NCBI GenBank assembly: GCA_963825385.1
Contig: CAWGSX010000003.1
Span: 1,356,088 to 1,420,087 of the forward strand
DNA length: 64,000 nt
Reading direction: 5' to 3'
Origin: an uncultured Pseudomonadota bacterium
GTDB taxonomy: Bacteria > Pseudomonadota > Gammaproteobacteria > Steroidobacterales > Steroidobacteraceae
Position 1 is the first letter of the stretch; each line of letters opens with the position of its first letter. The notes beneath the pieces were generated by a model. The model was not told the DNA's origin. It made no database searches and saw only the letters and a program-made list of their open reading frames with translations. Of the stretch, positions 14,735 to 53,473 are shown in pieces. The translations under genes and the position numbers were made by a program.

Positions 14735-16506
14735 GCAGGCTTTTGCGGCCGCATGTCCTCGCTGCGGATACCGGCAACCACCACGGGCTTCTTCATGGCG
14801 TCGCGGCGGAACGGCTCGCCGAGCTCCTGGTTCAGGATGACCTCGATGAAGGTCGTGACGTTGTCGGCTTGCGCGGCGCACGCCGTCTTCAGAGCCTGGG
14901 TGAGCTCGGCCGGGGTGCGCACGGTGACGCCGCGATGGCCGCAGCCTTCGGCGACCTTCGCGTAGCTGAGGTTCGGGTCCAGTTCGGTGCCGACGAAGTT
15001 GTTGTCGTACCAGAGGATCGAGTTGCGCTTCTCTGCGCCCCACTGGTAATTGCGGAAAATGACCATGGTGACATGCGGCCACTCGTTGCGGCCGATCGAG
15101 CTCATCTCGTTCATCGAGATCCCGAAGGCGCCATCACCGGCGAAGCCGACGACCGGCGTACCGGGGTTGCCGATCTTGGCGCCGATGATCGAGGGGAAGC
15201 CGTAGCCGCACGGCCCGAACAGCCCCGGGGCCAGATACTGGCGGCCCTTGGGGAACATCGGATAGGCATTGCCGATCGCGCAGTTGTTGCCGATGTCACT
15301 GGAGATGATGGCCTCGCGCGGCAGCGCCGCCATGATCGCGCGCCACGCCTGGCGCGGGGACATGTGCCTGGGCTCGCGGGCACGGCAGTCGGCATTCCAG
15401 TCCGTGCCCGGGTCGTCGTCCTCGTGGTCGAGCGTCTGCAGCGCATCCGCCCAGCTGCGCTTGCGGGCGTCGATCCTGCGGCGCCGCTCGGCGCGGCCGG
15501 CATCGCCGGCCTGCGGGTCGAGCTGAGTGAGGATCTGCGCGGCCACTTGCCTCGCGTCGCCGCAGATCGCCACCGCCACGGGCTTGGTGAGGCCGATGCG
15601 GTCGGCGTTGATGTCGACCTGGATGACGGCCGCCGACTTCGGCCAGTAGTCGAGCCCGTAGCAGGGCAGCGTCGAGAAGGGATTCAGGCGCGTGCCGAGC
15701 GCGAGGACCACGTCGGCCTCGGCGATCAGCTCCATGGCCGCACGCGAGCCGTTGTAGCCGAGCGGGCCGGCCGCCAGGGGATGCTCGCCCGGGAAGGAAT
15801 CGTTGTGCTGGTAATTGTTGCAGACCGGCGCATCGAGCCGCTCGGCGAGGGCGACGCACTCGGGGATGGCGTTGCCGAGCACCACCCCGGCGCCGGAGAG
15901 GATCACCGGGAACCTGGCCTGGGACAGCAGGCGCGCGGCTTCGGCGATGGCTTTTGCGCCGCCGGCGGGACGCTCGAACTCGATCGCCGTCGGCAGCGGC
16001 ACATCGATCACCTGCGTCCAGAAGTCGCGCGGGATGTTGATCTGCGCCGGGGCCGAGAGGCGCTTGGCCTTGCCGATGACGCGGTTCAGGACTTCGGGCA
16101 CCCGCGTCGCGTCGCGCACCTCTTCCTGGTAGGCGACGATGTCACGGAACAGGGCCATCTGCTCGAGCTCCTGAAAGCCGCCCTGGCCGATGGTGCGGTT
16201 CGCCGCCTGTGGCGTCACGAGCAGCATCGGAGTGTGATTCCAGTAGGCGGTCTTCACCGCGGTCACAAAGCCGGTGATGCCCGGACCGTTCTGCGCGATC
16301 GCCATGGCGATCTTGCCGGTCGAGCGCGTGAAGCCGTCGCAGATGAGGCCGCCGTTGGTCTCGTGTGCCACGTCCCAGAACCGGATCCCCGCCTTGGGGA
16401 ACAGATCCGAGATCGGCATGAATGCCGAGCCGATGATGCCGAAGGCATTCTCGATGCCGTGCTGCTGCAGGACCTTGACGAAGGCCTCTTCCGTGGTCAT
16501 TTTCAT
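14731..16506 (-). CDS. xsc: Sulfoacetaldehyde acetyltransferase (ThDP-dependent)
   Basis: The N-terminus MKMTTEEAFVKVLQQHGIENAFGIIGSAFMPISDLFPKAGIRFWDVAHETN is close to characterised Xsc proteins as I recall them. ThDP motif GDGAFG..NE. Operon context with tpa. Confidence 0.9.
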   Translation of the reverse strand: MKMTTEEAFVKVLQQHGIENAFGIIGSAFMPISDLFPKAGIRFWDVAHETNGGLICDGFTRSTGKIAMAIAQNGPGITGFVTAVKTAYWNHTPMLLVTPQAANRTIGQGGFQELEQMALFRDIVAYQEEVRDATRVPEVLNRVIGKAKRLSAPAQINIPRDFWTQVIDVPLPTAIEFERPAGGAKAIAEAARLLSQARFPVILSGAGVVLGNAIPECVALAERLDAPVCNNYQHNDSFPGEHPLAAGPLGYNGSRAAMELIAEADVVLALGTRLNPFSTLPCYGLDYWPKSAAVIQVDINADRIGLTKPVAVAICGDARQVAAQILTQLDPQAGDAGRAERRRRIDARKRSWADALQTLDHEDDDPGTDWNADCRAREPRHMSPRQAWRAIMAALPREAIISSDIGNNCAIGNAYPMFPKGRQYLAPGLFGPCGYGFPSIIGAKIGNPGTPVVGFAGDGAFGISMNEMSSIGRNEWPHVTMVIFRNYQWGAEKRNSILWYDNNFVGTELDPNLSYAKVAEGCGHRGVTVRTPAELTQALKTACAAQADNVTTFIEVILNQELGEPFRRDAMKKPVVVAGIRSEDMRPQKPA

Positions 16507-30737: not shown

Positions 30738-32201
30738 TCAGGTGTCGGGCGCCATACTCCAGAGGTGGAAGACGGCATAACCGCGGAATGGCCGCCACCC
30801 TTCCGCGCGCTGTTCGAGCGCAGCGGCGTTGAGCGGCGCGGCGCCGCGTGCCGTGATTCGGCGCAGCTGCGGATCGCCGCTGGGAAAGGCATCCGGATCG
30901 CCGAGCCCGCGCAGTGCGATGTAGCCCGCAATCCAGGGGCTTATGCCCGGTACCGGCTGCAGCGCACTCAGAAGACTCGAGTTTGAGGTGTCGCTGCGGA
31001 TGTACCCGTCGCGTACTCCGCGCGCAAAGCTGCGCAGCGCGGCAATGCGGACCTGCGTGAGGCCGAGATGCTCAAGCTCGGCAGTGGCGACGGCTGCCGC
31101 GGTAGGAAACAGCCGGACGAGACCGACCTTGTCCTCCGCGCAAGGCTCGCCGGCGAGCTCGATCAGGCGGGCGAGAGCGGCCCGAGCGGCGAGCTCACCG
31201 TGGCGCTCTGCGATGATCGCGCGCACACCACTTTCGAAGAAATCCCAGGCTCCCGAAAGTCGCATTCCCGGATGACGGGCCACGCACTCCCCGAGCAACG
31301 GGTCGCGACCCAACACTGCGGCAATGCGCGCCGGATCAGCCGCCAGGTCGAAGACGCGGCGCACCTGCGACACCAGCGGCAGCAGATCGGAGGGCTCGCC
31401 GCCGCGGATGCACAGCTCGAGGGCGTCGGCAGCGGCTGCCGGTGTGACCTCAACCACCCCGGCGCCGCCTGAGGTGCGCACGGTGCGGGCGTAGCGATCA
31501 GCCTCGACACGTTCTATGCCGGTGATGGCGCGGCGGGCAAGGAAATTGAGCAGCTGTGGCCAGTCATACGGCGGGCGGTAAGTCAGGCGCAGCCGGATCT
31601 CGGCATCCGTGGCCTCCGGCCGCACGGCCCGCAGCCGCCGCCGCATGTCGCGCGGCGGCCTGTGGTACATCGATTTGAATGCGTCGTTGAAGCGGCGCAC
31701 GCTGTGAAAGCCCGATGCGAGTGCGATCTCCGTGATAGGCAGATCTGTCTCATCGAGCAGCTGCTTGGCGAAATGCAGACGGCGCGTTTGGGCGACCGCA
31801 ACCGGCGAGGCGCCGAGGTGGCGCATAAACAGCCGCGACAGATGGCGCGTGCCGACGCCCAGACGTGTCGCCAGCTCCGCGATCGAGCCCTGATCGAGGG
31901 CACCGTCCTGGATGAGGCGTAATGCGCGGCGCACTACGGCGGAAGTCCCCAGCCAGGCCGGGGAGCCCGGTGCCGCCTCCGGGCGACACCGCAGGCAGGG
32001 TCTGAAGCCTGCCGCGGCGGCCTCGGCGGCGGTGGCGTAGTAACGCACGTTGGCATCGTGGGAGGTCTTCGCAGGGCAGATCGGCCGGCAGTAGATGCGC
32101 GTCGTCGTCACGGCAATGAAGAACTGGCCGTCGAAGCGCGCATCGCGGCTGCGGCGCGCGCGGTCAAGAACGTCCCGGGTGAGGCCGTAATGCTCGAGCA
32201 T
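30738..32201 (-). CDS. Ada-type Zn methylphosphotriester sensor / AraC HTH / AlkA DNA-3-methyladenine glycosylase II fusion
   Basis: The Cys4 region YCRPICPAK...FRPCLRCRP is the Ada N-terminal domain. The AraC HTH is TRLGVGTRHLSRLFMRHLG...IALASGFHSVRRFNDAFK. The C-terminal half is an AlkA/HhH-GPD fold. Confidence 0.85.
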   Translation of the reverse strand: MLEHYGLTRDVLDRARRSRDARFDGQFFIAVTTTRIYCRPICPAKTSHDANVRYYATAAEAAAAGFRPCLRCRPEAAPGSPAWLGTSAVVRRALRLIQDGALDQGSIAELATRLGVGTRHLSRLFMRHLGASPVAVAQTRRLHFAKQLLDETDLPITEIALASGFHSVRRFNDAFKSMYHRPPRDMRRRLRAVRPEATDAEIRLRLTYRPPYDWPQLLNFLARRAITGIERVEADRYARTVRTSGGAGVVEVTPAAAADALELCIRGGEPSDLLPLVSQVRRVFDLAADPARIAAVLGRDPLLGECVARHPGMRLSGAWDFFESGVRAIIAERHGELAARAALARLIELAGEPCAEDKVGLVRLFPTAAAVATAELEHLGLTQVRIAALRSFARGVRDGYIRSDTSNSSLLSALQPVPGISPWIAGYIALRGLGDPDAFPSGDPQLRRITARGAAPLNAAALEQRAEGWRPFRGYAVFHLWSMAPDT

Positions 32202-33215: not shown

Positions 33216-33902
33216 ATGAGCCCACACAGTCATCGCACTCACCGATCCGGGTGGTTGCGTGCAGGTCTGCTCGGCGCGAATGATGGGGTGCTCTCGATCT
33301 CCAGCCTGATGTTGGGTGTCGCCGCCGCGCACACGGGGGAAAGGGGCGCGTACATCGCCGCGTTCGCGGGACTTGTCGCCGGTGCGCTGTCGATGGGTGC
33401 GGGCGAATATGTCTCGGTGAGCTCCCAGGCCGATACGGAGCGCGCGGACATCGAGATCGAGCGGCGGGCATTGCGCCATGACTACGAGGCTGAGCGTGAG
33501 GAGCTGCAGGAGATCTATGTCCGACGCGGCCTCGACCGCGAACTAGCGGCTCAAGTAGCGCGTCAGCTGATGGCTCACGATGCGCTCGCCGCCCATACCA
33601 GGGATGATATCGGCATCACCGAGGCGCTCGCGGCGCGTCCGCTTCAGGCCGCGGGCTCTTCGTTCCTGAGCTTCGCGGTTGGAGGACTTGTCCCGGTCTT
33701 AGCCAGCGTCCTCGCGCCGAGCCAGGGGCGTGCAGTGCTCATAGCGGTGGTCTCGCTTTCGTTCCTGGGGGTGTTGGGCGCCCTGGGCGCCCGCGCCGGC
33801 GGCGCGCCTATGCTGGCGGGCGCTGCTCGTGTGTTGTTTTGGGGCGCGCTGGTGATGGGTGTTACGGCGGCGGTGGGCTCGCTTGTGGGTGCAGTGATCT
33901 GA
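33216..33902 (+). CDS. VIT1/CCC1 family iron/manganese transporter
   Basis: LRAGLLGANDGVLSISSLMLGVA...GALSMGAGEYVSVSSQAD...E..E.. cytoplasmic acidic helix, followed by three C-terminal TM segments. Confidence 0.85.
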   Translation: MSPHSHRTHRSGWLRAGLLGANDGVLSISSLMLGVAAAHTGERGAYIAAFAGLVAGALSMGAGEYVSVSSQADTERADIEIERRALRHDYEAEREELQEIYVRRGLDRELAAQVARQLMAHDALAAHTRDDIGITEALAARPLQAAGSSFLSFAVGGLVPVLASVLAPSQGRAVLIAVVSLSFLGVLGALGARAGGAPMLAGAARVLFWGALVMGVTAAVGSLVGAVI

Positions 33903-38435: not shown

Positions 38436-38777
38436 TGACATGCGTGACGGGCAGAGGTGCGCATTCGCAGCGCGGAGCCAAAGCGAAAGACTGCCAACCT
38501 TGTCAAGGTGCCTTGCGATCCTCAGTTTTGAAGCAACGCGGACAACGCCTACCCGCACCTAATGTCTTCCAAGTATCCCGGCCCGGCTTTCGTCAGGGTT
38601 TGACGTAAGGCTGTCCCATTTCCGGGGCGTGTTGGCGCGAGCTCGCTTGAGGAGCCCCGTCCAAGATCCGCCGCTTATCCGCGCCGGGCAAGGAGCTTAC
38701 GACGCTTCACCCTACCTTCTCCCCAAGGTATCATGCCGGCAAGGGGCCAATCATAAGGCTCTTAACTCCCGGGTCTC

Positions 38778-41700
38778 ATGGCGATACAGCAGGCTTCTGC
38801 GGCCGTCTTCGTGAGCTACGCCTCCGAGGACGAAGCGGCGGCAGCACGCATGGCCAGCGCGCTGCGTGCCGCAGCCGTAGAAGTGTGGCTCGACCGTAGC
38901 GAGCTCAAGAGTGGCGACGCCTGGGACCACGCGATCCGGCAGCAGCTGCGCGACTGTGCGCTCTTCATGCCGGTGATCTCGCGCCACACGACGCGTCGGC
39001 CGGAAGCCTACTTCCGTCTCGAGTGGCATCTCGCCGATCAGCGTACGTTGCTCATGGCGCCCAGCAGGGCGTTTATCGTACCGGTATGTATCGATGACAC
39101 GACCGAAGCGGAAGCCGAGGTGCCCGAATCATTTCGGGCGGTTCAGTGGACGCGCCTGCCAGGCGGCGCCATCACCCAGGCATTCCGCCAGCGCGTCGTA
39201 GCGCTCTTGCAGACACCTGCGGGCAAGGCCCGGGATGGCAACGGCAGTTCACGCACAGCGGCTGCGTCGGACACAACGCCGTCCGCGGCTGAAGCCATCA
39301 AGCTCGGCCCGTTCGAGTTCGTGCCTTCGGATCGGCAGCTGCTGCGCGCCGGGCAGCCGGTCGAGCTCGGTGCGCGTGCGTTCGACGTGCTGCAGATTCT
39401 CGCGGAGCAACCGGGGCGGCTGGTGACGAAGGCGACACTGCTCGAGCGCGCCTGGCCGAACCTGGTAGTAGATGAGAACAATCTTCCGGCGCAGATCGCG
39501 AGTTTGCGTCGCGTACTCGGTGCGGCGGCGATCCGCACAGTGCAGGGCTTTGGTTACCGGCTCGAGCTGGAGGTCGTGCGTCCGGTGCGCACGGTACAGG
39601 CGCCGCCCGCGCCCGTGCGGCTTCCCGTGCGCGCTGTTACCAAGCGGCTGACGCCGCTCATCGGGCGGGAACGCGACTTGCAGGCTCTGCAGACAGCGCT
39701 CGACGGTGCGCGCTGCGTTACCGTGGTGGGCGGCGCCGGCATCGGTAAAACGCGTCTTGCGCAGGAGGTGCTAGCACATACCGTCGCCACTGCCGAGCGA
39801 CAAGGAGCCTGGCTGGACCTCGCGCCACTGGCGCAACTGCGTCACGTGGCGAGCGCGGTTGCGGCAGCTGTCGGGGTGACGTTGCCCGACCGCGGCGATG
39901 GTTTCGCGGCACTCGAGCAAACACTCGCGCAAGCGCCGCTGTTACTCATCTTCGACGGCGCTGAGCACCTGGCCAGCGAGCTCGCGCCGGTGCTTGCGAC
40001 GCTGCTCGCCGGGACGGCGGAGTTGCGGGTGCTTATTACCAGTCAAGTGCCGCTCGGCCTGCCTGGTGAAACCGTGTTCCGCCTCGGTGCGCTCACGGTT
40101 GATGAAGACTTCGGTTCAGAGGTGCCCGCTGACGCATCTGGCGCGATAACGCTATTCGTGCACCGGGCGACAGCCGCCGATCGACGTTTTGCGCTCACCA
40201 GCGCGAATCGGGCGGCGGTCACCGAGATCTGCCGCCGTCTTGATGGGAACCCGCTCGCACTCGAACTCGCCGCTGCGCGGGTGCCGGCGCTCGGGGTCGC
40301 TTCGCTGCTGGAGCGTCTCGGCGACCGGCTGCGGTTACTGAAGACTAACGCCGCGGTTGATGATGCGCACCACGGTGCATTGCAGGCCGCGTTCGATTGG
40401 AGCTATCAGCTCCTGTCGCCGGCCGAGCAGCTCGTATTCAACTGGCTCGGGGTGTTTACGGGCAGTTTTTCTCTCGATGCCGCGGCCCGTACTGTCGCGG
40501 ACGGGCCGATGGACCGCTGCGACGCCATCGATCTTATCTCGCGTCTCGTCGATCGCTCCCTGGTCAATGCGCTGCCCTCGGACCCGCCGCGCTACGAGCT
40601 TTCCGAGACTGCGCGACTCTATGCGCTCGCCCGTCTTGAGACAGCCGGTCAAGAACAGGCCGCGCGGCGCGCCATGGGGGCAGCACTGCTCGAGCTCCTC
40701 GACCGCGCCTACGGGCAGTATTGGTCCGAGGACGAGGCGTTATGGCTGGCGCGCTATGAGCCGGATATCGAGAACGTTCGCGGCGCGATGACGTGGGCGG
40801 CGGCGCACGACCCCGCGCTCGCGGTGGCCCTGTTTGGCTCAGCGTGGCCGCTGCTGTTCGAGGCGGATCTGAACGCCGAGGGGCGGCACAGCTATCACAA
40901 CACCGTCGGGCTACTGTCAGATGGGCTGCCGCGAGCCCGGGTCGGCCGCTTCTGGGAGGCGATTGCGACCTTCGAATCCCAGCGGCAATGCGATCGGGCA
41001 CGTTACGCGGCCGAGCTCGCCGCGAGCATGCACGCGGACAGCGGCGCTCTGCAGGCGCGCTACTACGCGCTGATGCTGCTGGCCAGCAACTGGCGCATCG
41101 ACAACGAGGCGGCCCGCGCGGCCTTCGATGCCGCGCGCGCGCTGGAGGATTCGACCTGGCCTGCGCGCCTTCTGGGGCTCGGTGCGCTGACCGAGGGAGC
41201 GCTGCTCCTGACCCGAGGGGAGTTCCTGGCTGCGCGCGCGGCGTACCAGCGCGCGCTGCGCGCCTCGCTCAGCGTCAGCGAGAGGCAGGCGCTCGCGGCG
41301 ACTGCCGAGATCGTAGAGCTGGATATCGCCTGCGGCGAGCCCGTCGCGGCGCTGCAGCTGGCGCGGCCGCTGGTCGAGCGGCTGCGGCACTCGAGCAGGA
41401 GCGCCGTGCGCTTCGGACTACTGATAGCGACACTGCAGGCGCTGCTGCAGACCGGCGAACTGGAGGACGCGCGTGCGATCGGCTACGAGATACTCGAGAC
41501 CGGCACACGCCTCGAACCGGCGCGGCTGTATACGGCGCTCGATGCCATGGCGCAGCTCGCCTGCGCCGAGAGGCAGTTCAGGCAAGCAGCCCGGGTAGCT
41601 GCCTGCGCGGACGCCGCCTACGCCTTGCATGGGCAGGGCGAGCGCCGCTTGGTCGAGGCACGCCTGCGCGCGCAGACTGAGAGCTGTCTCGAGCGCGAGC

Positions 41701-41792
41701 TCGGTGCTGACTGGCGCGAGTCCGCGGTCGACCGCAGCGCGCCACTCGATGAGCGCGGTGCCTGTGCACTCGTCCTCGGGCTCGGTGTCTGA
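38778..41792 (+). CDS. TIR domain / OmpR-type winged-helix / NB-ARC STAND ATPase / TPR-like repeat protein (1004 aa)
   Basis: The TIR domain covers aa 8 to about 135 (VFVSYASEDE...FMPVIS...YFRLEWHLA). The trans_reg_C wHTH covers about aa 175-262 (FEFVPSDRQLLRAGQPVELGARAFDVLQILA...NLPAQIASLRRVLG...GFGYRL). The ATPase has Walker A GGAGIGKT (nt 39729-39752), Walker B LLLIFD, the GNPLALE motif and LSPAEQLVFNWLGVF. An Ala/Leu-rich helical repeat region of about 440 aa follows. Confidence 0.9.
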   Translation: MAIQQASAAVFVSYASEDEAAAARMASALRAAAVEVWLDRSELKSGDAWDHAIRQQLRDCALFMPVISRHTTRRPEAYFRLEWHLADQRTLLMAPSRAFIVPVCIDDTTEAEAEVPESFRAVQWTRLPGGAITQAFRQRVVALLQTPAGKARDGNGSSRTAAASDTTPSAAEAIKLGPFEFVPSDRQLLRAGQPVELGARAFDVLQILAEQPGRLVTKATLLERAWPNLVVDENNLPAQIASLRRVLGAAAIRTVQGFGYRLELEVVRPVRTVQAPPAPVRLPVRAVTKRLTPLIGRERDLQALQTALDGARCVTVVGGAGIGKTRLAQEVLAHTVATAERQGAWLDLAPLAQLRHVASAVAAAVGVTLPDRGDGFAALEQTLAQAPLLLIFDGAEHLASELAPVLATLLAGTAELRVLITSQVPLGLPGETVFRLGALTVDEDFGSEVPADASGAITLFVHRATAADRRFALTSANRAAVTEICRRLDGNPLALELAAARVPALGVASLLERLGDRLRLLKTNAAVDDAHHGALQAAFDWSYQLLSPAEQLVFNWLGVFTGSFSLDAAARTVADGPMDRCDAIDLISRLVDRSLVNALPSDPPRYELSETARLYALARLETAGQEQAARRAMGAALLELLDRAYGQYWSEDEALWLARYEPDIENVRGAMTWAAAHDPALAVALFGSAWPLLFEADLNAEGRHSYHNTVGLLSDGLPRARVGRFWEAIATFESQRQCDRARYAAELAASMHADSGALQARYYALMLLASNWRIDNEAARAAFDAARALEDSTWPARLLGLGALTEGALLLTRGEFLAARAAYQRALRASLSVSERQALAATAEIVELDIACGEPVAALQLARPLVERLRHSSRSAVRFGLLIATLQALLQTGELEDARAIGYEILETGTRLEPARLYTALDAMAQLACAERQFRQAARVAACADAAYALHGQGERRLVEARLRAQTESCLERELGADWRESAVDRSAPLDERGACALVLGLGV

Positions 41793-41865
41793 GGCGGACC
41801 TGCGATTCAGAAACGTTTCAGGTGCATTTCAAGACCGCGCAGCACCCGCGCGCCATCATGGACCT

Positions 41866-41882
41866 GCCCTTAGATAAAGGGC
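41866..41882 (+). terminator. Rho-independent terminator candidate
   Basis: GCCCTT-AGATA-AAGGGC followed by CTTTCTGTGT, 74 nt after the stop of the TIR-STAND gene. Confidence 0.4.
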
Positions 41883-41909: not shown

Positions 41910-42182
41910 ATGCCTAAGTTCGTGATCGAGCGAGATATTCCCGGCGCCGGCAAGCTCAGTCCGGCGGAGCTCAAGAGCGTATCCCAGAAGTCCTGCGGGG
42001 TCCTGTCAAGCCTGGGGCCGAGCGTGCAGTGGATGCACAGCTACGTGACCGGCGACAAGATTTACTGCGTGTATCACGCCAAGGACGAATCGCTGATCCG
42101 GCGTCATGCAGAGCTCGGCGGCTTCCCGGCTAATCGCATCGGGCGTGTCACGGCGATCATCGATCCCACTACGGCGGAGTGA
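41910..42182 (+). CDS. DUF4242 domain protein
   Basis: MPKFVIERDIPGAGKLSPAEL...VQWMHSYVTGDKIYCVYHAKDE..IRRHAELGGFPA matches the DUF4242 pattern. GGAGAG lies upstream. Confidence 0.8.
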   Translation: MPKFVIERDIPGAGKLSPAELKSVSQKSCGVLSSLGPSVQWMHSYVTGDKIYCVYHAKDESLIRRHAELGGFPANRIGRVTAIIDPTTAE

Positions 42183-43338: not shown

Positions 43339-44033
43339 TGCTGCAGGCTTCCCGGGCGCTATCTGACGATTAGAGCCTGGTGCGGCGCCAGAGTTTCCTG
43401 GCACTTTTGGGGTGACGTGCATGCAGGGGTTTCCTGAAAAGGCTGCTCGGCGCCGGCGCTTTCCTTTCTTGCCACGGCTGGTGCGCAACCACCGCGGCGC
43501 ATCCTGTGGCTCGCGCACTCATGCTTGCAGCATGCGCTGTGCACAAGCCCGAGGATAGCGTGCGGTGCGAGTCGACGCCGCATGGATACGCCTGATACGT
43601 CTGTCAACGGCAGGAACCTCACCCGGATCCACCGCCTCAGGGTCTCAGCGCTGGAGCTGGGCTTTCCTGCGCCGAGAGGGGTTTCGCTTGGGATCCGTGG
43701 GTGTCCGCGTCACCCCGCTCAGGGAGCCTTACAAAAGGCAATAATCGTGGCATTTGCCGGCTGTGCCGAAGGTGTGACCTTTGCGCTCATTGCAGCTCTT
43801 CGACTACCATCGGCACCCGTTGTCGCAGCGAACGTTTGCCCCACGCGCCCTTCACCACTGTCGCCATGTGCTGCGTCTGCGTGCGCGGCAGATGACCAGC
43901 GCGGCTTCTGCGTCGCGCCGCACTCCGCCTCACCACCTGCCAGGAGCCCCATGCGCGTCTTGAACCGCCTCAAGACGGACCGATGGCCTGCCCAGACACT
44001 GCGCGGGCCGCCCAGCTTGGGGATCTGCGCGAG

Positions 44034-45533
44034 ATGAGCTCATGCAGTGCCCTGCGCGCGGGGCAGTACGCGGCGGCTCTGGCTCTTGCAGTTCTGGCCA
44101 GTGGCGGCTGCGCGGTGGGGCCGAACTTCAAGAGGCCGCCCGCGCCACAGGTCAGCGGCTACGGCGCAGCTCCGCTTCCCGAAGCTACCACCCCGAGCGG
44201 CCCGGCTAGCGAAACCCAACGCTTTGCCAGCGGCAGCGACATCTCCGCAGACTGGTGGACCTTATTTCATTCCGAGTCGCTGAACGCGCTCGTTGCGCAG
44301 TCACTCCTCACCAACCCGGATCTCAAGTCGGCACAGGCTGCTCTGTCGGTGGCGCGGGAGAACGTACTGGCGCAGCGCGGCGTCTACTATCCGAGCGTCG
44401 CCGCGAGCTTTTCCGCGAGCCGCCAGCGCCAGGCGGGAACGATCTCGCCGACCCCGAGTTCGAACGCGTTCCAGTACAACCTCTTTACCCCGCAGGTCAG
44501 CGTCGCCTACGTGCCGGACGTATTCGGCCTCAACCGGCGCACGGTCGAGTCCCTGCAGGCGCAGGCCCAAGAAGTGCGCTTTCAGATGATCGCCACCTAT
44601 ACCACCCTGACCTCCAATGTCGTGGTGACGGCGATTCAGATCGGTTCCGTGCGGGCGCAAATCGAGGCGACCCGGCAGCTGATCGAGCTCAATTCCCGCA
44701 TGCTGGAGATCGTGAAGTACCAGGCGGACAAAGGCTATGCGAGCGGACTGGACCTCGCCGCGCAGGACGCGCAGCTTGCGCAGGTCGCCGCGACGCTGCC
44801 GCCACTTCTGAAGCAGGAGGCACAGCTGCGCGACCTGCTCGCGGTGCTGGCGGGCCGCTTCCCGAGCGAGGCGCCGGCTGAGAACTTCGCCCTGACGGAC
44901 CTGCAGCTGCCTCACGAGCTGCCGGTGAGTCTGCCTTCGGCACTCGTGGCGCAGCGTCCCGATGTGCTGCAGGCTGAGGCGAACATGCACGACGCGAGTG
45001 CCAAGATCGGCATCGCGATCGCCAACCGGCTGCCGAATATCGAGCTGACCGCCAACGCCGGCAGTACGGCACTCGCCATCAACCAGCTGTTTACCGGCGG
45101 TACCGGCTTCTGGGGAATCGGTGCCGCGGCCACCGCACCTCTTTTCCAGGGCGGCATGCTGTTGCACCAGCAGCGCGCGGCGCAGGCAGCCTACGTGCAG
45201 GCCTCTGAGCAGTATCGCAGCACGGTGCTGACCGCCTTCCAGAACGTCGCGGACACACTGGCAGCCCTGCAGCAGGACGCCGATGCCCTGCAAGCCGCGA
45301 GCACCGCCGCCGCTGCGGCTAAAGTGACGCTCGATCTCGCACAGCGCCAGCAACGGGTCGGCTACGCCGGCTATCTCGCGCTCTTGAACGCGGAGCAGGC
45401 CTACCAGCAGGCCCGCATCAGCCTCGTGGAAGCACAGGCAAGTCGCTTGGCCGACACCGCGGCACTGTTCCAGGCACTCGGCGGAGGCTGGTGGCATCGT
45501 GCCGATCTGGCTGCGGATGAGCATGGTAACTAG
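44034..45533 (+). CDS. RND efflux outer-membrane factor lipoprotein (NodT/CzcC-type)
   Basis: Lipobox LASGGC followed by AVGPNFKRP. Two OEP repeats. First gene of an OMF-MFP-RND operon. Confidence 0.9.
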   Translation: MSSCSALRAGQYAAALALAVLASGGCAVGPNFKRPPAPQVSGYGAAPLPEATTPSGPASETQRFASGSDISADWWTLFHSESLNALVAQSLLTNPDLKSAQAALSVARENVLAQRGVYYPSVAASFSASRQRQAGTISPTPSSNAFQYNLFTPQVSVAYVPDVFGLNRRTVESLQAQAQEVRFQMIATYTTLTSNVVVTAIQIGSVRAQIEATRQLIELNSRMLEIVKYQADKGYASGLDLAAQDAQLAQVAATLPPLLKQEAQLRDLLAVLAGRFPSEAPAENFALTDLQLPHELPVSLPSALVAQRPDVLQAEANMHDASAKIGIAIANRLPNIELTANAGSTALAINQLFTGGTGFWGIGAAATAPLFQGGMLLHQQRAAQAAYVQASEQYRSTVLTAFQNVADTLAALQQDADALQAASTAAAAAKVTLDLAQRQQRVGYAGYLALLNAEQAYQQARISLVEAQASRLADTAALFQALGGGWWHRADLAADEHGN

Positions 45534-46695
45534 CGGCGCGATCGATACCTGCCGTACCTCAGCTGTGGCGGCCCTGGCCGCTGCGGGGCTTCTGGCGCTG
45601 TGCCTCGCGACTGGGGGCTGTTCGGAGAAGACCGACACCGCGCCCCCGACTGCGGCAAACGACAACGTGCGGCTCACGCCGGCGCAGCGCCAGCACGTCG
45701 GCCTCTTCACAGTCGTGTCAGCAAAATTCCACAGGAACACCGAAACCACGGGCGTCGTCGATTTCGACAACGACCAGGCGACGAGCGTGCTGGCGCCGTT
45801 CTCCGGTCCGGTGTCGCGCCTGCTCGTCGACCTCGGCGCGCGGGTCAAGATGGGCGACCCTCTGGCGCTGGTCGATTCACCGGACTTCGCCGCGGCGATC
45901 AGTGCTTATCAGAAGGCCCGCGCCACCGCGCAGACCAACCGCCGTCTTGCGGACCTGGACAAGGATTTGCTGGAGCACCACGGCGTAGCCCAGCGCGAAG
46001 CGGCACAGGCGGAAACGGATGCCGTAAATGCCGAGGCCGACCGCGATGCCGCCCTGCAGGCGCTGATTTCCCTCAACGTAAACCCGCAGACGATCGAGGA
46101 CCTGCGCGCCGGCCGGCCGGTGAAGCACGCGACGGCCGTCATCCGCGCGCCGATCGCGGGCACGGTGGTGGAGAAACTCATCACACCCGGTCAGCTGCTG
46201 AGCGCGGGCACGACGCCATGCTTTACGGTAGCCAACCTGTCACGCGTCTGGGTCATGGCGCAGGTCTTCGGCGGCGATTTGAGCGCCGTAAGCCCGGGCG
46301 ATCCGGCCGAGGTGACCAGCGGTATCGGCTCCGATACCTTTCCGGGCAAGGTGGACAACATTTCGGCGCTGGTGGACCCGGACACTCGGGCCGTAGCGGT
46401 GCGCGTGGTCGTCGATAACCCTAAACAGCTCCTCAAAAAGCAGATGTACGTGCGCGTCTCGATCCGTTCCGGGGCGGAGAGCGACGGGCTGCTCGTGCCC
46501 GTCTCCGCCATCCTGCGCGATGATGAGAACCTCCCCTTCGTCTACGTCGCAGAATCTGATGGCAGCTTCGCACGCCGGCACGTCTCCCTGGGCTTCCGTA
46601 CCGGTGAGCAGTACGACATCGCCGACGGGCTCAAGGTCGGCGACCGGATCGTAGTCGCCGGCGGCATCTTCGTTCAGTTCATGCAAAGCCAATGA
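45517..46695 (+). CDS. RND efflux periplasmic adaptor (CzcB/CusB-type)
   Basis: Lipobox ATGGC. Hairpin, lipoyl and beta-barrel regions (IRAPIAGTVVEK, GKVDNISALVDPDTRAVAVRVVVDN). The start is ambiguous (GTG 45499, ATG 45517 or ATG 45523). The stop overlaps the next ATG. Confidence 0.85.
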   Translation: MSMVTSGAIDTCRTSAVAALAAAGLLALCLATGGCSEKTDTAPPTAANDNVRLTPAQRQHVGLFTVVSAKFHRNTETTGVVDFDNDQATSVLAPFSGPVSRLLVDLGARVKMGDPLALVDSPDFAAAISAYQKARATAQTNRRLADLDKDLLEHHGVAQREAAQAETDAVNAEADRDAALQALISLNVNPQTIEDLRAGRPVKHATAVIRAPIAGTVVEKLITPGQLLSAGTTPCFTVANLSRVWVMAQVFGGDLSAVSPGDPAEVTSGIGSDTFPGKVDNISALVDPDTRAVAVRVVVDNPKQLLKKQMYVRVSIRSGAESDGLLVPVSAILRDDENLPFVYVAESDGSFARRHVSLGFRTGEQYDIADGLKVGDRIVVAGGIFVQFMQSQ

Positions 46696-49600
46696 GCGCG
46701 GATCCGCCCGCGCCGGCGCCGCTTCCGGCAGGGCCTTCGGCGATGAACCGCCTCGTGGCAGCCTCGCTGCGCCAGCGCTTCCTGATCGCACTTCTGACGC
46801 TGCTCCTGATTGGCGCCGGCGCCCGCTCCCTCAACCGCCTGCCGGTGGATGCCTATCCAGATCTCTCGCCGCCCATGGTGGAGCTCATAACCCAGTGGCC
46901 GGGACACGCTGCCGAAGAGGTGGAACGGCTGATCACGGTGCCGGCCGAGCGCGAGATGAACGGCATTCCGCGCCTGACCGAGATCCGCTCGATCTCGCTG
47001 TATGGCCTGTCGGACGTCATTCTGACTTTCGGAATGCGCACTGACGCTTACTTCGCGCGTCAGCAGGTTTTCGAACGCATGTCGCAGCTCAGTCTGCCGG
47101 ACGGGGTGGCGCCGGCACTTTCGCCGCTGTCGGCGCCCTCGGGCCTGATCTATCGCTACGTGCTGCAGAGCCCCGACCGCACGCCGATGGAGCTAAAGAC
47201 CTTCGAGGACTGGACCATCGAGCCCGCCTATCGCTCCGTGCCCGGGGTGGCGGATGACTCCGGCTTCGGTGGCGGCACGATGCAGTACCAGGTCCTGCTC
47301 GATCCGGCCCGCATCGCCTCCGTCGGTCTCTCGGCGCAGCAGGTCGAAAGTTCGCTCAGCGCGAATAACAACAACGGCGGCGGCGGATTCTACTCGCAGG
47401 GTGGCCAGTTCTATTACGTGCGTGGCCTCGGGCGTCTCACCTCCGTCGAGGACATCGGCAACGTCGTCGTGGCCGTGCACAACGGCACCCCGGTGCTGGT
47501 CAAGGATGTCGGCCGCGTGGTGATCGGCATCGCCCCGCGCCTGGGTGAGTTCGGCTACGAGAAGCAGGATGACGCCGTGGAAGGCGTCATCCTGCTGCTG
47601 ACGGGCGAGAAGACCCAAGACGTGCTGAAGCGGGTCGAAGCCAAGACCCGCGAGCTCAACGAGCAGATCCTGCCGAAGGATGTCAAGGTCGTGCCATTCT
47701 ACGACCGCAGTGACCTCGTGACGCTCACGACACAGGTCGTGGAAGGCAACCTGCTGCGCGGCATGCTGCTGGTCGTCGCGATACTCATATTCTTTCTGTA
47801 CGACTTCCGTGCCGGGCTGATCGTGGCCACGAGCATCCCGCTGGCGCTGCTGTTCGCCTTTGTGTGTCTGGACCTGCAGAACGCCTCGGCCAACCTGCTG
47901 TCCATCGGCGCGGTGGATTTCGGGATCCTCGTGGACGGTGCAGTCGTCATGGTGGAAAATATCTTTCGCCAGCTCGCCACCCGCGGCGACAATCCGCGCG
48001 ACATCCTGGCCGTCATCCGCAACGCGGCAGCGGAGGTGGATCGCCCGCTGGTCTACTCGGTGGCGGTGATCGTGGCTGGCTTCCTGCCGATCTACGTGTT
48101 GTCCGGGCCTTCGGGCACGCTGTTCAGGCCCATGGCCGACACCATGGTGTTCGCTCTGATCGGCTCACTTCTGGTCACGCTCACCTTGTTGCCGGTGCTG
48201 TGCTCATGGTTCATGCGCCGCGGTGTACGCGAGCGACGCAACGTCGCCTACGAAGCGATTAAATCAGTTTACATCCGGGGTCTCGATGTCTGTATCGCCC
48301 GTCCCTGGGCCACGACCGCGGCCTGCGCGGCGCTCCTCGCCATGTCGCTGCTGCTTACGCTGCGCATCGGCGCTGAGTTCATGCCGAAGCTGGACGAAGG
48401 CGCGTTATGGGTGCGCGCCACGATGCCGTACACCATCTCGTTCGACGAGGCGGCGAAAATCGCACCGAAGGTCCGCGAGCTGCTGCATTCCTTCCCCGAA
48501 GTCACAACCGTGGCATCGGAACTCGGTCGCCCCGATGACGGTACCGATCCTACCGGCTTCTTCAATGTCGAGTTCTACGTGGGGCTCACGCCCTACTCGC
48601 ACTGGCGGGGGCAGTACCGCAACAAGGCCGGGCTGATCGAAGCCGTCAACCGCAAGCTCGCGGCCTTTCCCGGCATTACCTTCAACTACACCCAGCCGGC
48701 CGAGGATGCGGTGGACGAGGCGGAAACGGGGCTAAAGAGCGCGCTGGCGGTCAAAGTCTTCGGCTCCGATCTGAACCGGCTCGAGGAGAAAGGCCGCGCG
48801 ATCAAGCAGATTCTCGAGCGGGTGCGCGGCATCCGCGACGTCACCCTGGTGCAGGAGCTCGGTCAGCCCAGCCTGACGATCAAGATCGACCGCGCGCGCA
48901 TCGCCCGTTACGGACTGAACGTGGCCGATATCAACGGCCTCATCCAGACCGCGATCGGGGGCGATGTGGCAACCGAGGTGGTGCAGGAGGAGAAGCAGTT
49001 CGATCTGGTCGTCCGGCTCGAACAACAGTACCGTGACAATCCGGTGGAGATCGGCAACATCCTGGTCGCCACCCCGGCCGGCCAGCAGGTACCGCTCAAG
49101 GAATTCGCGGATATCGCGATATCGAGCGGCGCGTCGTTCATCTATCGCGAGAACAACTCGCGCTACATAGGCGTACAGTTCTCCGTGGAGGGCCGTGACC
49201 TCGCCAGCGCGGTCGAGGATGCCATCCGTCAGGTCAACGCCAAGGTCAGCCTGCCGCAGGGCTACCGTCTCGACTGGGGCGGGGAATACAGCGAGTACAC
49301 AACTTCGCGGGCCCAGCTGAACGTTATCCTGCCGCTGACACTGTTCCTCATTTTCTTTCTGCTGTTCGCGCTGTACGGCAATTTCAAATTCCCATTCATC
49401 ACCGTGCTGGGCGTGGTGCTGTCGGCGCCGATCGGCGGAATCGTAGCGCTGTGGCTTACCGGCACGCCGTTCTCTGTGTCCTCAGGCATCGGCTTCCTCG
49501 CCCTCTTTGGCGTCTCAGTGCAGACGGCGGTTGTGTACATCTCCTATGTGAACGAGCTGCGCCACGATGGCACACCGCTCGCCGAGGCCATCCGCGCTGG

Positions 49601-49817
49601 GGCGATCCTGCGGCTGCGTCCGATCATGATGACCGCGCTGGTGGCGGCGATGGGCCTGCTGCCGGTGGCCCTTGCCACCGGCGTCGGCACCGACTCGCAG
49701 CGCCCGTTCGCGCTCGTCATAGTCAGCGGCCTCTTCACGCGACTGCTGCTCAGCGTGTTTCTGATGCCGGCGCTGTATACCCTGGTGGCCCGGCCCGGCG
49801 ATCGCGTGGCGGTCTAG
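46692..49817 (+). CDS. CusA/CzcA family heavy-metal efflux RND transporter
   Basis: 1041 aa with 12-TM HME-RND topology. ATGA overlap with the adaptor gene. The N-terminus LPVDAYPDLSPPMVELITQWPGHAAEEVE is typical of CzcA/CusA. Confidence 0.9.
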   Translation: MSADPPAPAPLPAGPSAMNRLVAASLRQRFLIALLTLLLIGAGARSLNRLPVDAYPDLSPPMVELITQWPGHAAEEVERLITVPAEREMNGIPRLTEIRSISLYGLSDVILTFGMRTDAYFARQQVFERMSQLSLPDGVAPALSPLSAPSGLIYRYVLQSPDRTPMELKTFEDWTIEPAYRSVPGVADDSGFGGGTMQYQVLLDPARIASVGLSAQQVESSLSANNNNGGGGFYSQGGQFYYVRGLGRLTSVEDIGNVVVAVHNGTPVLVKDVGRVVIGIAPRLGEFGYEKQDDAVEGVILLLTGEKTQDVLKRVEAKTRELNEQILPKDVKVVPFYDRSDLVTLTTQVVEGNLLRGMLLVVAILIFFLYDFRAGLIVATSIPLALLFAFVCLDLQNASANLLSIGAVDFGILVDGAVVMVENIFRQLATRGDNPRDILAVIRNAAAEVDRPLVYSVAVIVAGFLPIYVLSGPSGTLFRPMADTMVFALIGSLLVTLTLLPVLCSWFMRRGVRERRNVAYEAIKSVYIRGLDVCIARPWATTAACAALLAMSLLLTLRIGAEFMPKLDEGALWVRATMPYTISFDEAAKIAPKVRELLHSFPEVTTVASELGRPDDGTDPTGFFNVEFYVGLTPYSHWRGQYRNKAGLIEAVNRKLAAFPGITFNYTQPAEDAVDEAETGLKSALAVKVFGSDLNRLEEKGRAIKQILERVRGIRDVTLVQELGQPSLTIKIDRARIARYGLNVADINGLIQTAIGGDVATEVVQEEKQFDLVVRLEQQYRDNPVEIGNILVATPAGQQVPLKEFADIAISSGASFIYRENNSRYIGVQFSVEGRDLASAVEDAIRQVNAKVSLPQGYRLDWGGEYSEYTTSRAQLNVILPLTLFLIFFLLFALYGNFKFPFITVLGVVLSAPIGGIVALWLTGTPFSVSSGIGFLALFGVSVQTAVVYISYVNELRHDGTPLAEAIRAGAILRLRPIMMTALVAAMGLLPVALATGVGTDSQRPFALVIVSGLFTRLLLSVFLMPALYTLVARPGDRVAV

Positions 49818-51504: not shown

Positions 51505-51934
51505 CAGCGTCCGCCGCGAAGTAAAATAGAAAATCCCGCATTTCGGCGGTACGCCTGAAGCGAGTCACTGGGAACGTTGCTATTTTCTTCGCGGCCGGAG
51601 ACGTCAGTGACGGCTGCAGGTCAAAGAGCGGTCAAAAACCGATCGCCAGTCGCTGTTTGATTGCTGCGACGCAGCGCAGGTGCCCGACGCCAGGACCCTG
51701 ATCGAAGTAGTGGCGGGTTCCTGATTTCGCCCCGGCTACTCTCCTGCGTCGGCCATAGCAGCTTTAATTCCTGCGGTTTTCGACCACTTGCCTTTACGCT
51801 TTGGGCCGGCCGGGCCCGACTCCTGCCAGATCTTGCAATACCCGTCGGCAGCGCATAAAAGGCTCGCCAGAGCCAAGGGGTTCATCGGCCGGGGCGGCGT
51901 TCGTTGGATGCCGCGACGCCCGGAGAGGGTAGAC

Positions 51935-53473
51935 ATGGCACAGAACGACGAACGCGACATCCCGTTTCACGGGCCCGCGCGGGAAGCCCTCGTTAGGAAC
52001 CGGTTTGACAGCATTCTCGAAACGATTGGACGCACACCGATCGTGAGAATCAACAAGCTCGCGCCCGCGCACGCACAGCTGTACGTCAAGATAGAAGCCT
52101 TTAATCCGATGGGGTCGGTTAAGGACCGATTAGCTTTCGGGGTCATCGAGGATGCCGAGCGCACGGGACGACTTAGGCCAGGGCAAACGGTAATTGAGGC
52201 GACCAGCGGGAATACGGGTATCGGGCTCGCCATGGTGTGCGCCGCGAAAGGCTACCCGCTCGTTGTGACCATGGCCGAGAATTTCAGCGTTGAACGGCGC
52301 CGCTTGATGCGCTTCCTCGGCGCGAAGGTCGTACTGACGCCCGCAGCACTTAAAGGGAGCGGGATGCTTGCCAAGGCGACGGAGCTTGCGCTGAAGCACG
52401 ACTGGTTTCTATGTCGGCAGTTCGAGAACGAAGCGAATGCCGCAGTGCATTCACGCACGACTGCACGGGAGATTCTCAGTGCCTTTGAGGGCGAGCGTCT
52501 TGATTACTTCGTTACCGGTTTCGGCACCGGTGGCACGCTGAAGGGCGTTGCGCGGGTGTTGCGCGAGCGTCGCCCCGAGACCAGAGTGATTGTGTGCGAA
52601 CCGGATAACTCGCAGGTACTGGGGAGTGGAATCTCACAGCCCAGGCATCCCGATGGGATGCCGGCGGGCAGCCATCCGAGCTTCCGGCCGCATCTGATGC
52701 AGGGTTGGAGTCCGGATTTCATTCCGAAGCTGACCGAGGACGCCGTGGCGCTCAAGCTGATCGACCGGATCGTGCCGGTGAGCGGTGCGCGCGCGCTCGA
52801 GCTCTCACGCGAGCTCGCCCGAAAGGAAGGGATCTTCGTAGGCATATCCGCCGGGGCTACCCTCGCCGGCGCCTTGCAGGTATGCGAGGAAGCGTCACCC
52901 GGTGCGAACGTCCTATGTATGTTGCCAGACACGGGAGAGCGCTATCTGAGCACTCCGCTGTTCAGCGACATTCCGGCCGACATGAGCGACGAGGAGCTCG
53001 CGATCGCCCGCTCGACGCCTAACTACCGTTTCGACGTCCCGCCGCCCCCGGCGCCTGCGGGAGCGCCCCAGCCGATTACGCAGGATGCAGAGGAGTTCGT
53101 GTCACGCGTGATCAGCGACTCCGAGCAGCCGGTGGTGATGTTCGCGCTCGAGTGGTGCGAGTTCTGCTGGGCAGTTCGTCGGATGTTCGCGAAGCACGGC
53201 ATTGCGTATCGGTCGGTTGATCTCGACTCGGTGGAATATCAGCGAGACGATCGCGGCGGCAAGATTCGTGCGGCGCTGAGCGCACGCACTTCGATGACTA
53301 CGATTCCGCAGATTTTCGTTGCGGGCGAATTTATCGGGGGGTGCACTGATGTCTTCAATGCTCACAAGGCAGGACGGCTTCAGGCTCTTCTCGATAAGCG
53401 TGGCATCTCGTACGACCGTACCGTGCAGGTTGATCCGTACTCATTCTTGCCGTCTTGGCTGCATCCGCGTTGA
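51935..53473 (+). CDS. Cysteine synthase-family PLP enzyme fused to a C-terminal glutaredoxin-like domain
   Basis: ATG at 51935 after GGAGAGGG. CysK/CysM motifs are present (NPMGSVKDR PLP lysine, TSGNTGIGLA, GFGTGGTL). After a Pro-rich linker comes a Grx fold with CEFC and TIPQIFVAGEFIGGCTD. Confidence 0.85.
   Translation: MAQNDERDIPFHGPAREALVRNRFDSILETIGRTPIVRINKLAPAHAQLYVKIEAFNPMGSVKDRLAFGVIEDAERTGRLRPGQTVIEATSGNTGIGLAMVCAAKGYPLVVTMAENFSVERRRLMRFLGAKVVLTPAALKGSGMLAKATELALKHDWFLCRQFENEANAAVHSRTTAREILSAFEGERLDYFVTGFGTGGTLKGVARVLRERRPETRVIVCEPDNSQVLGSGISQPRHPDGMPAGSHPSFRPHLMQGWSPDFIPKLTEDAVALKLIDRIVPVSGARALELSRELARKEGIFVGISAGATLAGALQVCEEASPGANVLCMLPDTGERYLSTPLFSDIPADMSDEELAIARSTPNYRFDVPPPPAPAGAPQPITQDAEEFVSRVISDSEQPVVMFALEWCEFCWAVRRMFAKHGIAYRSVDLDSVEYQRDDRGGKIRAALSARTSMTTIPQIFVAGEFIGGCTDVFNAHKAGRLQALLDKRGISYDRTVQVDPYSFLPSWLHPR

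Follow-up and report, generated by a model that had tools for sequence, protein, structure and literature searches.

A candidate TIR-bearing STAND transcription activator and its predicted operator upstream of a SCO4226-like gene in Steroidobacteraceae

Here we describe a two-gene module in a stretch of 64,000 nucleotides (nt) from the genome of an uncultured gammaproteobacterium of the family Steroidobacteraceae (contig CAWGSX010000003.1, positions 1,356,088 to 1,420,087; this whole stretch is hereinafter referred to as the window). A large open reading frame (ORF) encodes a protein of 1004 amino acids (aa) that combines an N-terminal TIR domain, a winged helix-turn-helix (wHTH) DNA-binding domain of the OmpR type, a STAND nucleotide-binding oligomerisation domain (NOD) and a C-terminal array of helical repeats; it is followed by a small gene for a SCO4226-like (DUF4242) protein. 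Taken together, the architecture of the large protein, the conservation of the gene pair and a predicted operator between the two genes make it probable that the protein is a ligand-gated STAND activator of transcription that carries the TIR domain as an add-on, with the SCO4226-like gene as its target. The regulator and operator part of this model is well supported; the chemistry of the TIR domain is its weakest step.

A conserved gene pair

The SCO4226-like gene adjoins the regulator gene in every homologous locus examined, and the other neighbours vary from locus to locus; these loci were fetched for homologues that are 53-86% identical and come from independent assemblies. The pair occurs in two arrangements. 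In L001, L002 and L003-L006, the SCO4226-like gene is located on the same strand, about 125 nt downstream of the regulator, as it is in the window, where it starts 118 nt 3' of the regulator and is preceded by a good Shine-Dalgarno sequence (AGGAG). In the TIR-less loci L007-L009 and L010, as well as in the TIR-bearing L011, it is located divergently upstream. The 90-aa product in the window is named a DUF4242 domain-containing protein in the sources, and a PDB sequence search with this protein gave no match at E <= 1. SCO4226 is a small dimeric Ni-binding protein, the gene for which is induced by nickel (PMC4186839).

A sequence-only reading of the window had assumed that the regulator gene stands alone and ends in its own terminator hairpin. 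The first assumption is contradicted by the conserved partner, and the second did not hold up either: a terminator scan returned 1 site against 2.5 expected, the hairpin is not conserved in L001-L003, and the fold of the intergenic RNA is not significant relative to shuffled sequence (z = -1.36). On these grounds we reject the hairpin, which lies between the putative promoter of the partner gene and its start codon, as a feature of the system.

Some loci contain tandem SCO4226-like genes of 90 aa and about 118 aa (L010, 5155-5847 on the minus strand; L071, 3891 and 4418), and in L071 each of the two genes has its own copy of the operator described below. In L002 (11469-11981) and L003 (11481-11993), and also in L004-L006, the gene next after the SCO4226-like one belongs to the OsmC family; the window and L001 lack this OsmC-family gene.

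A predicted operator upstream of the partner gene

Alignment of the intergenic regions of homologous loci brought out a conserved block, TTCAGAAAnnTTTCAGnnnnnnTTCAAGAC, which we interpret as an operator. It consists of three direct repeats of the unit TTCA(G/A), the starts of which are exactly 11 bp apart, so that all three units come to lie on one face of the helix. Written as the pattern TTYAGAA-N3-TTTCA-N7-TTCAAGAC, the block is present in the window upstream of the adjacent SCO4226-like gene, and this is the only match in the window, against 0 expected (Table 1). The operator is kept in 7 loci that were found via protein homology alone, and the block appears also in divergent loci, oriented there like the SCO4226-like gene.

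A scan for the pattern in DNA only, covering 185,579 species with one genome each, gave 119 sites in 113 stretches, nearly all of them from Steroidobacteraceae and from metagenome-assembled genomes of other Gammaproteobacteria. At 80 of the 119 sites, a SCO4226-like ORF oriented like the motif starts 52-205 nt downstream, and at 86 a wHTH-STAND-TPR homologue is found within 1.5 kb, divergent in 77 cases and on the same strand in 9. The 9 same-strand homologues are 80-90% identical to the core of the window regulator, and at least 5 of the 9 were verified to bear a TIR domain; most of the 77 divergent ones are 50-73% identical to this core, and three are weak matches (28-40%) in which the wHTH alone is covered. 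Several of the sites that have neither a SCO4226-like ORF nor a regulator belong to loci cut off at their ends.

The repeats end about 18 nt before a -10-like hexamer that is located at a fixed distance from the operator. Among the 77 unique sites linked to SCO4226-like genes and anchored on the motif, the columns of this hexamer carry 0.8-1.2 bits, and these columns are unconstrained by the search pattern. Independent evidence for the operator comes from the 7 protein-anchored loci, from the gene associations and from the -10 columns.

The operator is also found without a SCO4226-like gene, at 10 further sites in Steroidobacteraceae and other Gammaproteobacteria that lie upstream of a second conserved gene (L033, 786-815 (+); L041, 5429-5458 (+); L046; L080; L082; L083, 1929; L085; L015; L117; L122, 3176). 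The product of this gene has about 180-200 aa and looks exported, with a signal-peptide-like N-terminus; a His-rich stretch can be recognised by eye, and a later segment reads ...RFRDINVA...GPCVSGP..GAMGVH...PEALIYEP.... A Pfam search of this protein and of four hypothetical neighbours found no family. The second conserved gene is probably a member of the regulon and, with two gene families under the same operator, it seems that a small regulon is marked out by this element.

Many TIR-less loci with the divergent layout have the operator directly against the beginning of the regulator gene, where it probably controls the regulator's own promoter as well, which would make these regulators autoregulated; in L041, L062, L083, L090 and L122, it is found 4 nt from the regulator match. 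In the same-strand layout of the window, the operator cannot control the promoter of the regulator. Three sites in Acidobacteriota (L013, 278; L030, 2171; L116, 5219) contain an AT-rich variant of the pattern (TTCAGAAAAATTTCAGAAATTCTTCAAGAC) that shortly precedes another ORF; the ORFs in L013 and L030 resemble each other. Neither a SCO4226-like gene nor a regulator homologue was found near these sites. The variant represents either a separate element or a match by chance.

Domain architecture of the regulator

The regulator is encoded by a single ORF, as the sequence-only reading had it, and the four modules proposed in that reading are borne out by Pfam (TIR_2, Trans_reg_C and AAA_16/AAA_22) as well as by AlphaFold2 (AF2) models compared with known structures using Foldseek. 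All the motifs that it had named, GGAGIGKT, LLLIFD, GNPLALE, the winged helix that follows them, and E82 within YFRLEWHLA, were found in their places. The same architecture, with the same TIR subtype, is shared by 47 homologous clusters.

The DNA-binding domain was matched by Trans_reg_C at aa 192-262 (E 5.3e-15), its PDB sequence matches are PrrA, PhoB and CadC, and in the model of the regulator core it matches CadC, OmpR, PhoB and ToxR with TMt about 0.8. This core model (aa 166-1004, pLDDT 80) consists of a winged helix, an alpha/beta P-loop domain and all-helical repeats at approximately aa 604-999 (439-834 in core-model numbering). Its best Foldseek match is the STAND-TPR protein 6MFV (PH0952), with E 3.9e-8.

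The NOD was recognised by AAA_16 and AAA_22 at aa 293-419, both over their Pfam cut-offs; its Foldseek matches are the plant NB-ARC resistosomes NRC3, ZAR1 and Roq1, along with CED-4 and ORC/Cdc6, and residues G318-T325, D393 and D489-G490-x-P492 are invariant in the alignment of homologues. The regulator is, then, a STAND NTPase, and this part of the earlier description as an NB-ARC type STAND stands. The NB-ARC part is less straightforward: the NB-ARC model (PF00931) scores 16.2 bits against a cut-off of 23.5, and NACHT scores 24.7 against 26.7, so that both remain under threshold. Many paralogues have a precomputed PF00931 match; membership in the NB-ARC family is likely, and "NB-ARC-like STAND" is the better wording. 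A similar qualification applies to the repeats. The helical repeats that had been anticipated are there in the predicted structure, and they match the TPR regions of LGN, APPBP2 and the 6MFV sensor (Foldseek), but none of the Pfam TPR models matches the C-terminal region, and we use the label "TPR-like" on the strength of the model.

No BTAD match was found after the wHTH with Pfam at E <= 1, and the gap between wHTH and NOD spans only aa 263-292, some 30 residues that are modelled as disordered. Pfam gave no Response_reg match, that is, no receiver domain, in the regulator, and the NCBIfam response-regulator models match by their C-terminal effector part alone (aa 163-265), far under the cut-off.

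The coordinates of all features are collected in Table 1. The candidate promoter of the regulator gene has 9/12 consensus matches and is one of 2 sites found in the region by the consensus scan, against 0.5 expected.

Table 1. Features of the regulator and partner gene module (window coordinates).
Feature	Position	Strand	Remarks
Candidate sigma-70-type promoter of the regulator gene	38706..38734	+	TTCACC, 17-nt spacer, TATCAT; weak evidence
Regulator ORF, 1004 aa	38778..41792	+	order: TIR, linker, OmpR-type wHTH, STAND NOD, helical repeat sensor
TIR domain, aa 8-147	38799..39218	+	subtype motif R-x-E-[GA]-Y-F-R-L-E-W-x-L-A
Codon of E82, candidate catalytic Glu in YFRLEWHLA	39021..39023	+	within predicted helix 77-92
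Low-complexity linker, aa 148-174, joining TIR to winged helix	39219..39299	+	from sequence; low pLDDT at start of core model
OmpR/PhoB-type winged-helix DNA-binding domain, aa 175-262	39300..39563	+	Trans_reg_C
STAND NOD, aa 293-600	39654..40577	+	Pfam AAA_16/AAA_22, motifs, Foldseek
Walker A GGAGIGKT, aa 318-325, with K324	39729..39752	+	invariant in alignment of homologues
Walker B LLLIFD, aa 388-393	39939..39956	+	
GxP motif GNPLALE, aa 490-496	40245..40265	+	
Winged-helix subdomain of the NOD, LSPAEQLVFNWLGVF at aa 546-560	40413..40457	+	
C-terminal all-helical, TPR-like repeat region, aa 604-1004, presumed ligand sensor	40587..41789	+	AF2, Foldseek
Predicted operator, three direct repeats TTCAG / TTCAG / TTCAAG, TTCAGAAACGTTTCAGGTGCATTTCAAGAC	41806..41835	+	conserved in protein-anchored loci
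-10-like hexamer CATCAT	41854..41859	+	fixed distance from operator; family consensus G.GA..CT
GCCCTT-AGATA-AAGGGC hairpin, presumed 5' leader of partner gene	41866..41882	+	probably not a conserved terminator
SCO4226-like / DUF4242 gene, 90 aa, partner and presumed target	41910..42182	+	Pfam PF14026, E 5.1e-24

The TIR domain and its candidate catalytic glutamate

The identity of the N-terminal domain is clear. TIR_2 was matched at aa 10-136 (E 9.5e-20, 71.7 bits against a 28-bit cut-off), and the AF2 model (pLDDT 84.4, pTM 0.82) shows the expected alternation of beta-strands and alpha-helices. This model has 78 PDB matches at E <= 0.001, among which, for the matches listed, almost all are TIR domains; those at the top are SPARTA TIR-APAZ, SARM1, PdTIR and AbTir (TMq 0.6-0.7).

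E82, which the sequence-only reading had named as a candidate catalytic glutamate, holds up as a candidate. In a weak profile alignment, E82 comes opposite Glu77 of the SPARTA TIR-APAZ chain 8z92_E, with the family motif R-x-E-G-Y-F-R-L-E-W-x-L-A paired with K-R-E-G-V-L-K-E-L-A-V-A of SPARTA. Glu77 of SPARTA is catalytic, and its substitution by alanine abolishes the NADase activity (PMC9097488). SPARTA TIR-APAZ is the only PDB family that could be aligned through helix alpha-C; alignments to AbTIR, PdTIR, BtpA and TcpB end at strand beta-C or conflict on the catalytic position. The equivalent glutamate is present in 47/47 regulators with the TIR subtype of the window, in 117/120 other proteins of this subtype, and in all four examined members (4/4) of a second subtype that is discussed below. 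Such conservation supports a putative functional site at E82, without proving it, and the active site of the TIR domain apparently is catalytically intact.

The TIR subtype of the window extends far beyond the regulators. At E <= 1e-30, it comprises 1,252 clusters at 50% identity, the domain is almost always N-terminal, and it is about 60% identical across very different architectures and phyla, including TPR proteins of 600-1,140 aa. Individual carriers are P0308 (1040 aa), P0256 (1728 aa) and P0272 and P0290 (about 1,100 aa each); among the carriers there are a fusion of a Ser/Thr protein kinase with TPRs and long TPR proteins, with the TIR at the N-terminus, and one carrier has three TIR copies along with DUF4062, NB-ARC and CHAT domains. 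In L003, a 630-aa protein (13947-15839, minus strand) shares this TIR subtype (RVEGYFRLEWRLA); behind the TIR come a segment that reads "AVLPL..YFSDG" and TPRs. This protein is encoded 3 kb from the regulator, so the subtype recurs on other signalling-type proteins within one genome.

The regulator family and the repeated acquisition of TIR domains

The regulator family includes 4,683 matches at E <= 0.001. Close TIR-bearing relatives have about 1,005 aa and are 70-86% identical to the window protein, but most relatives are TIR-less proteins of about 840 aa that begin at the winged helix and are 57-61% identical over the wHTH-NOD-repeat region. In a neighbour-joining tree of the core, with the TIR status taken from protein lengths and from comparison of TIR subtypes, TIR-bearing forms appear at three places: in the clade of the window protein, at P0050, and in a clade of P0073, P0086, P0099 and P0100. 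The TIR domain in the latter clade belongs to another subtype that is 27-29% identical to the window TIR and has the motif S-x-H-V-G-R-E-I-E-R-A. The three places in the tree and the two unrelated subtypes imply that the fusion arose independently at least twice. This repeated pairing of a TIR domain with the regulator family is previously undescribed, and it argues that the combination was selected for rather than being accidental.

Among 30 family members, the wHTH shows the highest mean pairwise identity (0.80), which fits a common operator; the respective values are 0.60-0.74 for the NOD and 0.58-0.72 for the C-terminal repeats. The presumed sensor is not diversifying, unlike the sensors of immune STAND proteins. 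A search of plasmids found no close homologue, only TIR-less relatives at 33-39% identity, and in two loci of such plasmid relatives that were examined, the neighbours are an ABC transporter and an oxidoreductase, and there is no SCO4226-like gene.

Genomic context

In the window, the neighbours of the module are a VIT1 transporter, an alpha/beta hydrolase, a glyoxalase and hypothetical genes, followed by an operon for OEP, CusB-like and RND efflux proteins. This efflux operon (43983-49817, plus strand), which encodes an outer-membrane factor, a CusB-like membrane-fusion protein and an RND pump, begins 1.8 kb downstream of the module; the VIT1-family metal transporter is encoded upstream (33216-33902, plus strand). 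None of this metal-related neighbourhood is conserved in the other loci. In L001, the module is located between mnmG/pyrF and mnmE/yidC/rnpA/dnaA. The lower GC content that had been ascribed to this part of the window applies to the upstream flank (32-38.8 kb, 0.612) but not to the regulator gene itself, which, at 0.684, is close to the 0.690 of the high-GC part of the window.

Matches to PADLOC are confined to the TIR portion of the regulator, the best one at 43.8 bits to Aga_TIR, and 10 neighbouring genes gave no PADLOC matches. The NCBIfam models for ThcB4 of Thoeris III and for retron-TIR reach 22-26 bits against cut-offs of 220-600. From PADLOC, NCBIfam and the genomic context, we reject membership in a known antiphage system (Thoeris, Avs, bNACHT, TIR-NLR, SPARTA or retron-TIR); the regulator falls outside every catalogued defence family.

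Two further fusion proteins are encoded in the window. The 487-aa product of an upstream gene (30738-32201, minus strand) joins an Ada Zn-binding domain, an AraC-type HTH and an AlkA N-terminal domain and looks like an adaptive-response regulator and glycosylase, and a 561-aa protein (51788-53473, plus strand) combines a PLP-dependent enzyme domain (PALP) with a C-terminal glutaredoxin domain.

A proposed mechanism and the alternatives

How might such a regulator work? Known TIR enzymes are activated by clustering, and the oligomerisation of a STAND protein could bring such clustering about. Under the model that we favour, a conserved cellular ligand would bind the helical repeats and free the NOD from autoinhibition, whereupon the NOD would swap ADP for ATP and oligomerise. 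Three winged helices would then align along the three repeats, which lie on the same face at about -60 to -31, and bring RNA polymerase to the promoter of the SCO4226-like gene, as PhoB and the SARPs do when they act as class-II activators. The TIR domains, which are tethered by a flexible linker (aa 148-174), would be clustered by this oligomerisation and might gain enzymatic activity, so that cleavage of NAD+ or production of a nucleotide signal would accompany the activation of transcription. These steps are inferred from the established behaviour of STAND proteins and of OmpR-type and SARP regulators (for SARPs, PMC10936776). Metal stress as the signal is a guess. That the protein is a bifunctional, resistosome-like factor outside immunity, in which a single ligand-driven oligomerisation both turns on the regulon and assembles an active TIR enzyme that cleaves NAD+ or makes a signal nucleotide, is a possibility that we put forward only tentatively.

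Several observations weigh against this model or parts thereof. The scan pattern fixes the bases of the repeats, so that the conservation of the repeats among the scan hits is circular; the promoter coordinates, including the placement of the repeats at about -60 to -31, are estimates; and another factor could bind the repeats instead of the wHTH. The link to metals is based on the name of the Pfam family and the Ni-binding of SCO4226, on a His-rich stretch of the second target that was seen by eye, and on an efflux operon that is not conserved. The TIR domain is apparently dispensable for the regulatory job because the TIR-less relatives appear to do the same job. As for the active site, the mapping of E82 has E = 0.24 with the trimmed profile and about 5e-4 with the full one, and pairwise alignments with AbTIR and PdTIR place the catalytic position on R80 or D87.

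The most serious competition for an enzymatic TIR comes from the notion that the domain is a non-enzymatic adaptor, in which case TIR-TIR contacts would either stabilise the regulator's own oligomer or link it to TIR-TPR and TIR-kinase-TPR proteins of the same subtype, such that upstream sensors would recruit or activate the transcription factor in a manner reminiscent of TLR and MyD88. The size of the subtype family, with its N-terminal location on signalling-type proteins and its identity of about 60% across architectures and phyla, is what one would expect under this scenario, given that conservation at this level is less typical of immune effectors than of a conserved surface for interactions; the TIR-TPR protein encoded 3 kb from the regulator in L003 also fits. 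Nevertheless, we consider a purely adaptor role unlikely: the candidate catalytic glutamate hardly varies, and neither does the R-x-E-G-Y-F-R-L-E-W motif around it, enzymatic TIRs are the closest in fold, and the second clade of regulators, with its unrelated TIR subtype, is better compatible with a generic property of TIR domains than with a subtype-specific partnership. Besides, the adaptor and enzyme roles are not mutually exclusive.

A defence or abortive-infection switch, which had been one of the two options offered by the sequence-only reading, would be a single-gene, NLR-like antiphage sensor, in which the repeats sense a phage component, the protein oligomerises, the TIR domain kills or arrests the cell by depleting NAD+, and the wHTH is an accessory. 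The combination of TIR, STAND and a repeat sensor does follow the logic of plant TNLs, bacterial Avs and bNACHT; the putative catalytic glutamate is in place, and the domain resembles the NADases SPARTA and SARM1; the module is found in variable genomic contexts, and the flanking DNA is lower in GC. Against this stand the PADLOC results, which do not reach beyond the TIR, the repeats that are as conserved as the NOD and show no sign of diversification, the location of the L001 module among mnmG, mnmE, yidC, rnpA and dnaA, the GC content of the gene, which is typical of the window, the lack of close homologues in the plasmid search and the nature of the closest relatives, which are TIR-less proteins that share both target gene and operator. 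An antiphage function therefore appears very unlikely, and the other option, a regulator with an NAD+-derived output, is more likely than a defence switch.

The tightness of the coupling itself admits yet another interpretation, namely, that the SCO4226-like protein is a functional partner of the regulator, a co-sensor or ligand carrier that presents a signal, such as a metal ion, to the repeats, with the upstream repeats serving feedback. The extremely tight association in both gene orders is compatible with this possibility, and TPR-type sensors often bind proteins or peptides; that SCO4226 binds Ni and is encoded by a nickel-induced gene likewise fits a carrier of metal. However, the relationship between a regulator and its target suffices to explain both the adjacency and the operator, and the second, unrelated gene family under the same operator favours a regulon. 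We regard a partner role of this kind as highly improbable and retain the STAND activator with a TIR add-on as the probable solution.

Relationship to known systems

Searches of the literature found no description of a combination of TIR, OmpR-type wHTH/Trans_reg_C and STAND, nor of a link between DUF4242 and this regulator; the sequence-only reading, too, had known of no functional description of this architecture. The likeness to wHTH-NOD-TPR regulators such as AfsR, which had been noted at the same time, holds for the working mode. AfsR and the large SARPs of Streptomyces share with the window regulator the order of an N-terminal OmpR-type wHTH, a STAND NOD and a sensor made of helical repeats, and also the direct repeats phased by 11 bp at the target promoter, the proximal one overlapping the -35 element (here, in a predicted operator). 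In SARP/AfsR targets, the direct repeats are spaced by 11 or 22 bp near -35, and a BTAD directly follows the wHTH (PMC10936776). The window regulator differs in having no BTAD, three repeats rather than two, a proteobacterial host and an additional N-terminal TIR, and AfsR chains are absent among the 50 Foldseek matches listed for the regulator core. The OmpR-type domain and the 11-bp repeats notwithstanding, the absence of the BTAD leads us to reject membership in the SARPs.

The fold and the sequence family of the DNA-binding domain are those of PhoB, OmpR, CadC and ToxR. Near -35, PhoB binds direct repeats that are arranged in tandem along a single helix face. The window regulator has neither the receiver nor the membrane anchor of these proteins and is instead controlled by a STAND NTPase module; given the absence of a receiver domain, membership among the response regulators was rejected. 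With MalT, GutR and the PH0952-type regulators, which have TPR or SUPR sensors, it shares the general character of a ligand- and ATP-gated oligomerising transcription regulator. The DNA-binding domain of MalT, however, is a C-terminal LuxR-type HTH, in contrast to the N-terminal OmpR-type wHTH of the window regulator, and to our knowledge, none of these regulators has a TIR domain.

On the immune side, plant TNLs (Roq1, RPP1) and bacterial Avs, bNACHT and TIR-NLR proteins have in common with the window regulator the N-terminal TIR, the STAND NTPase and the C-terminal repeat sensor, and its NOD structurally resembles the plant NB-ARC; in these families, activation of the TIR by oligomerisation is the expected logic. 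The differences are the wHTH that is inserted between the TIR and the NOD, a TPR-like rather than LRR sensor that is conserved rather than diversifying, and the possession of an operator and a target gene of its own. With its DNA-binding domain, its dedicated operator and its conserved sensor, the window protein looks like a regulator rather than a part of an immune system. The similarity to SPARTA TIR-APAZ concerns the TIR only, for which it is the best structural match, with the R-E-G...E motif in common, but the identity is about 20%, the window regulator has no APAZ domain or Argonaute partner, and the activation of SPARTA depends on a guide RNA and a target DNA.

Implications

The present analysis delineates an undescribed regulatory module in Steroidobacteraceae and provides DUF4242 proteins with a regulatory context. 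More generally, bacterial TIR domains have been studied almost entirely as immune effectors, whereas the TIR domain described here, the active site of which appears to be intact, belongs to a transcription activator with a defined operator, a defined target gene and abundant TIR-less sisters. The family thus amounts to a natural experiment on the role of TIR outside defence, be it as an NADase, a signal synthase or an adaptor, and one that is genetically tractable, with simple readouts (transcription of the SCO4226-like gene and NAD+ levels) and built-in controls (E82A, K324A and the TIR-less paralogues). If the bifunctional reading turned out to be true, transcription in response to stress would have a direct connection to NAD+ metabolism or a second messenger, and the repeated fusion of unrelated TIR subtypes to these regulators would reflect selection for exactly that coupling.

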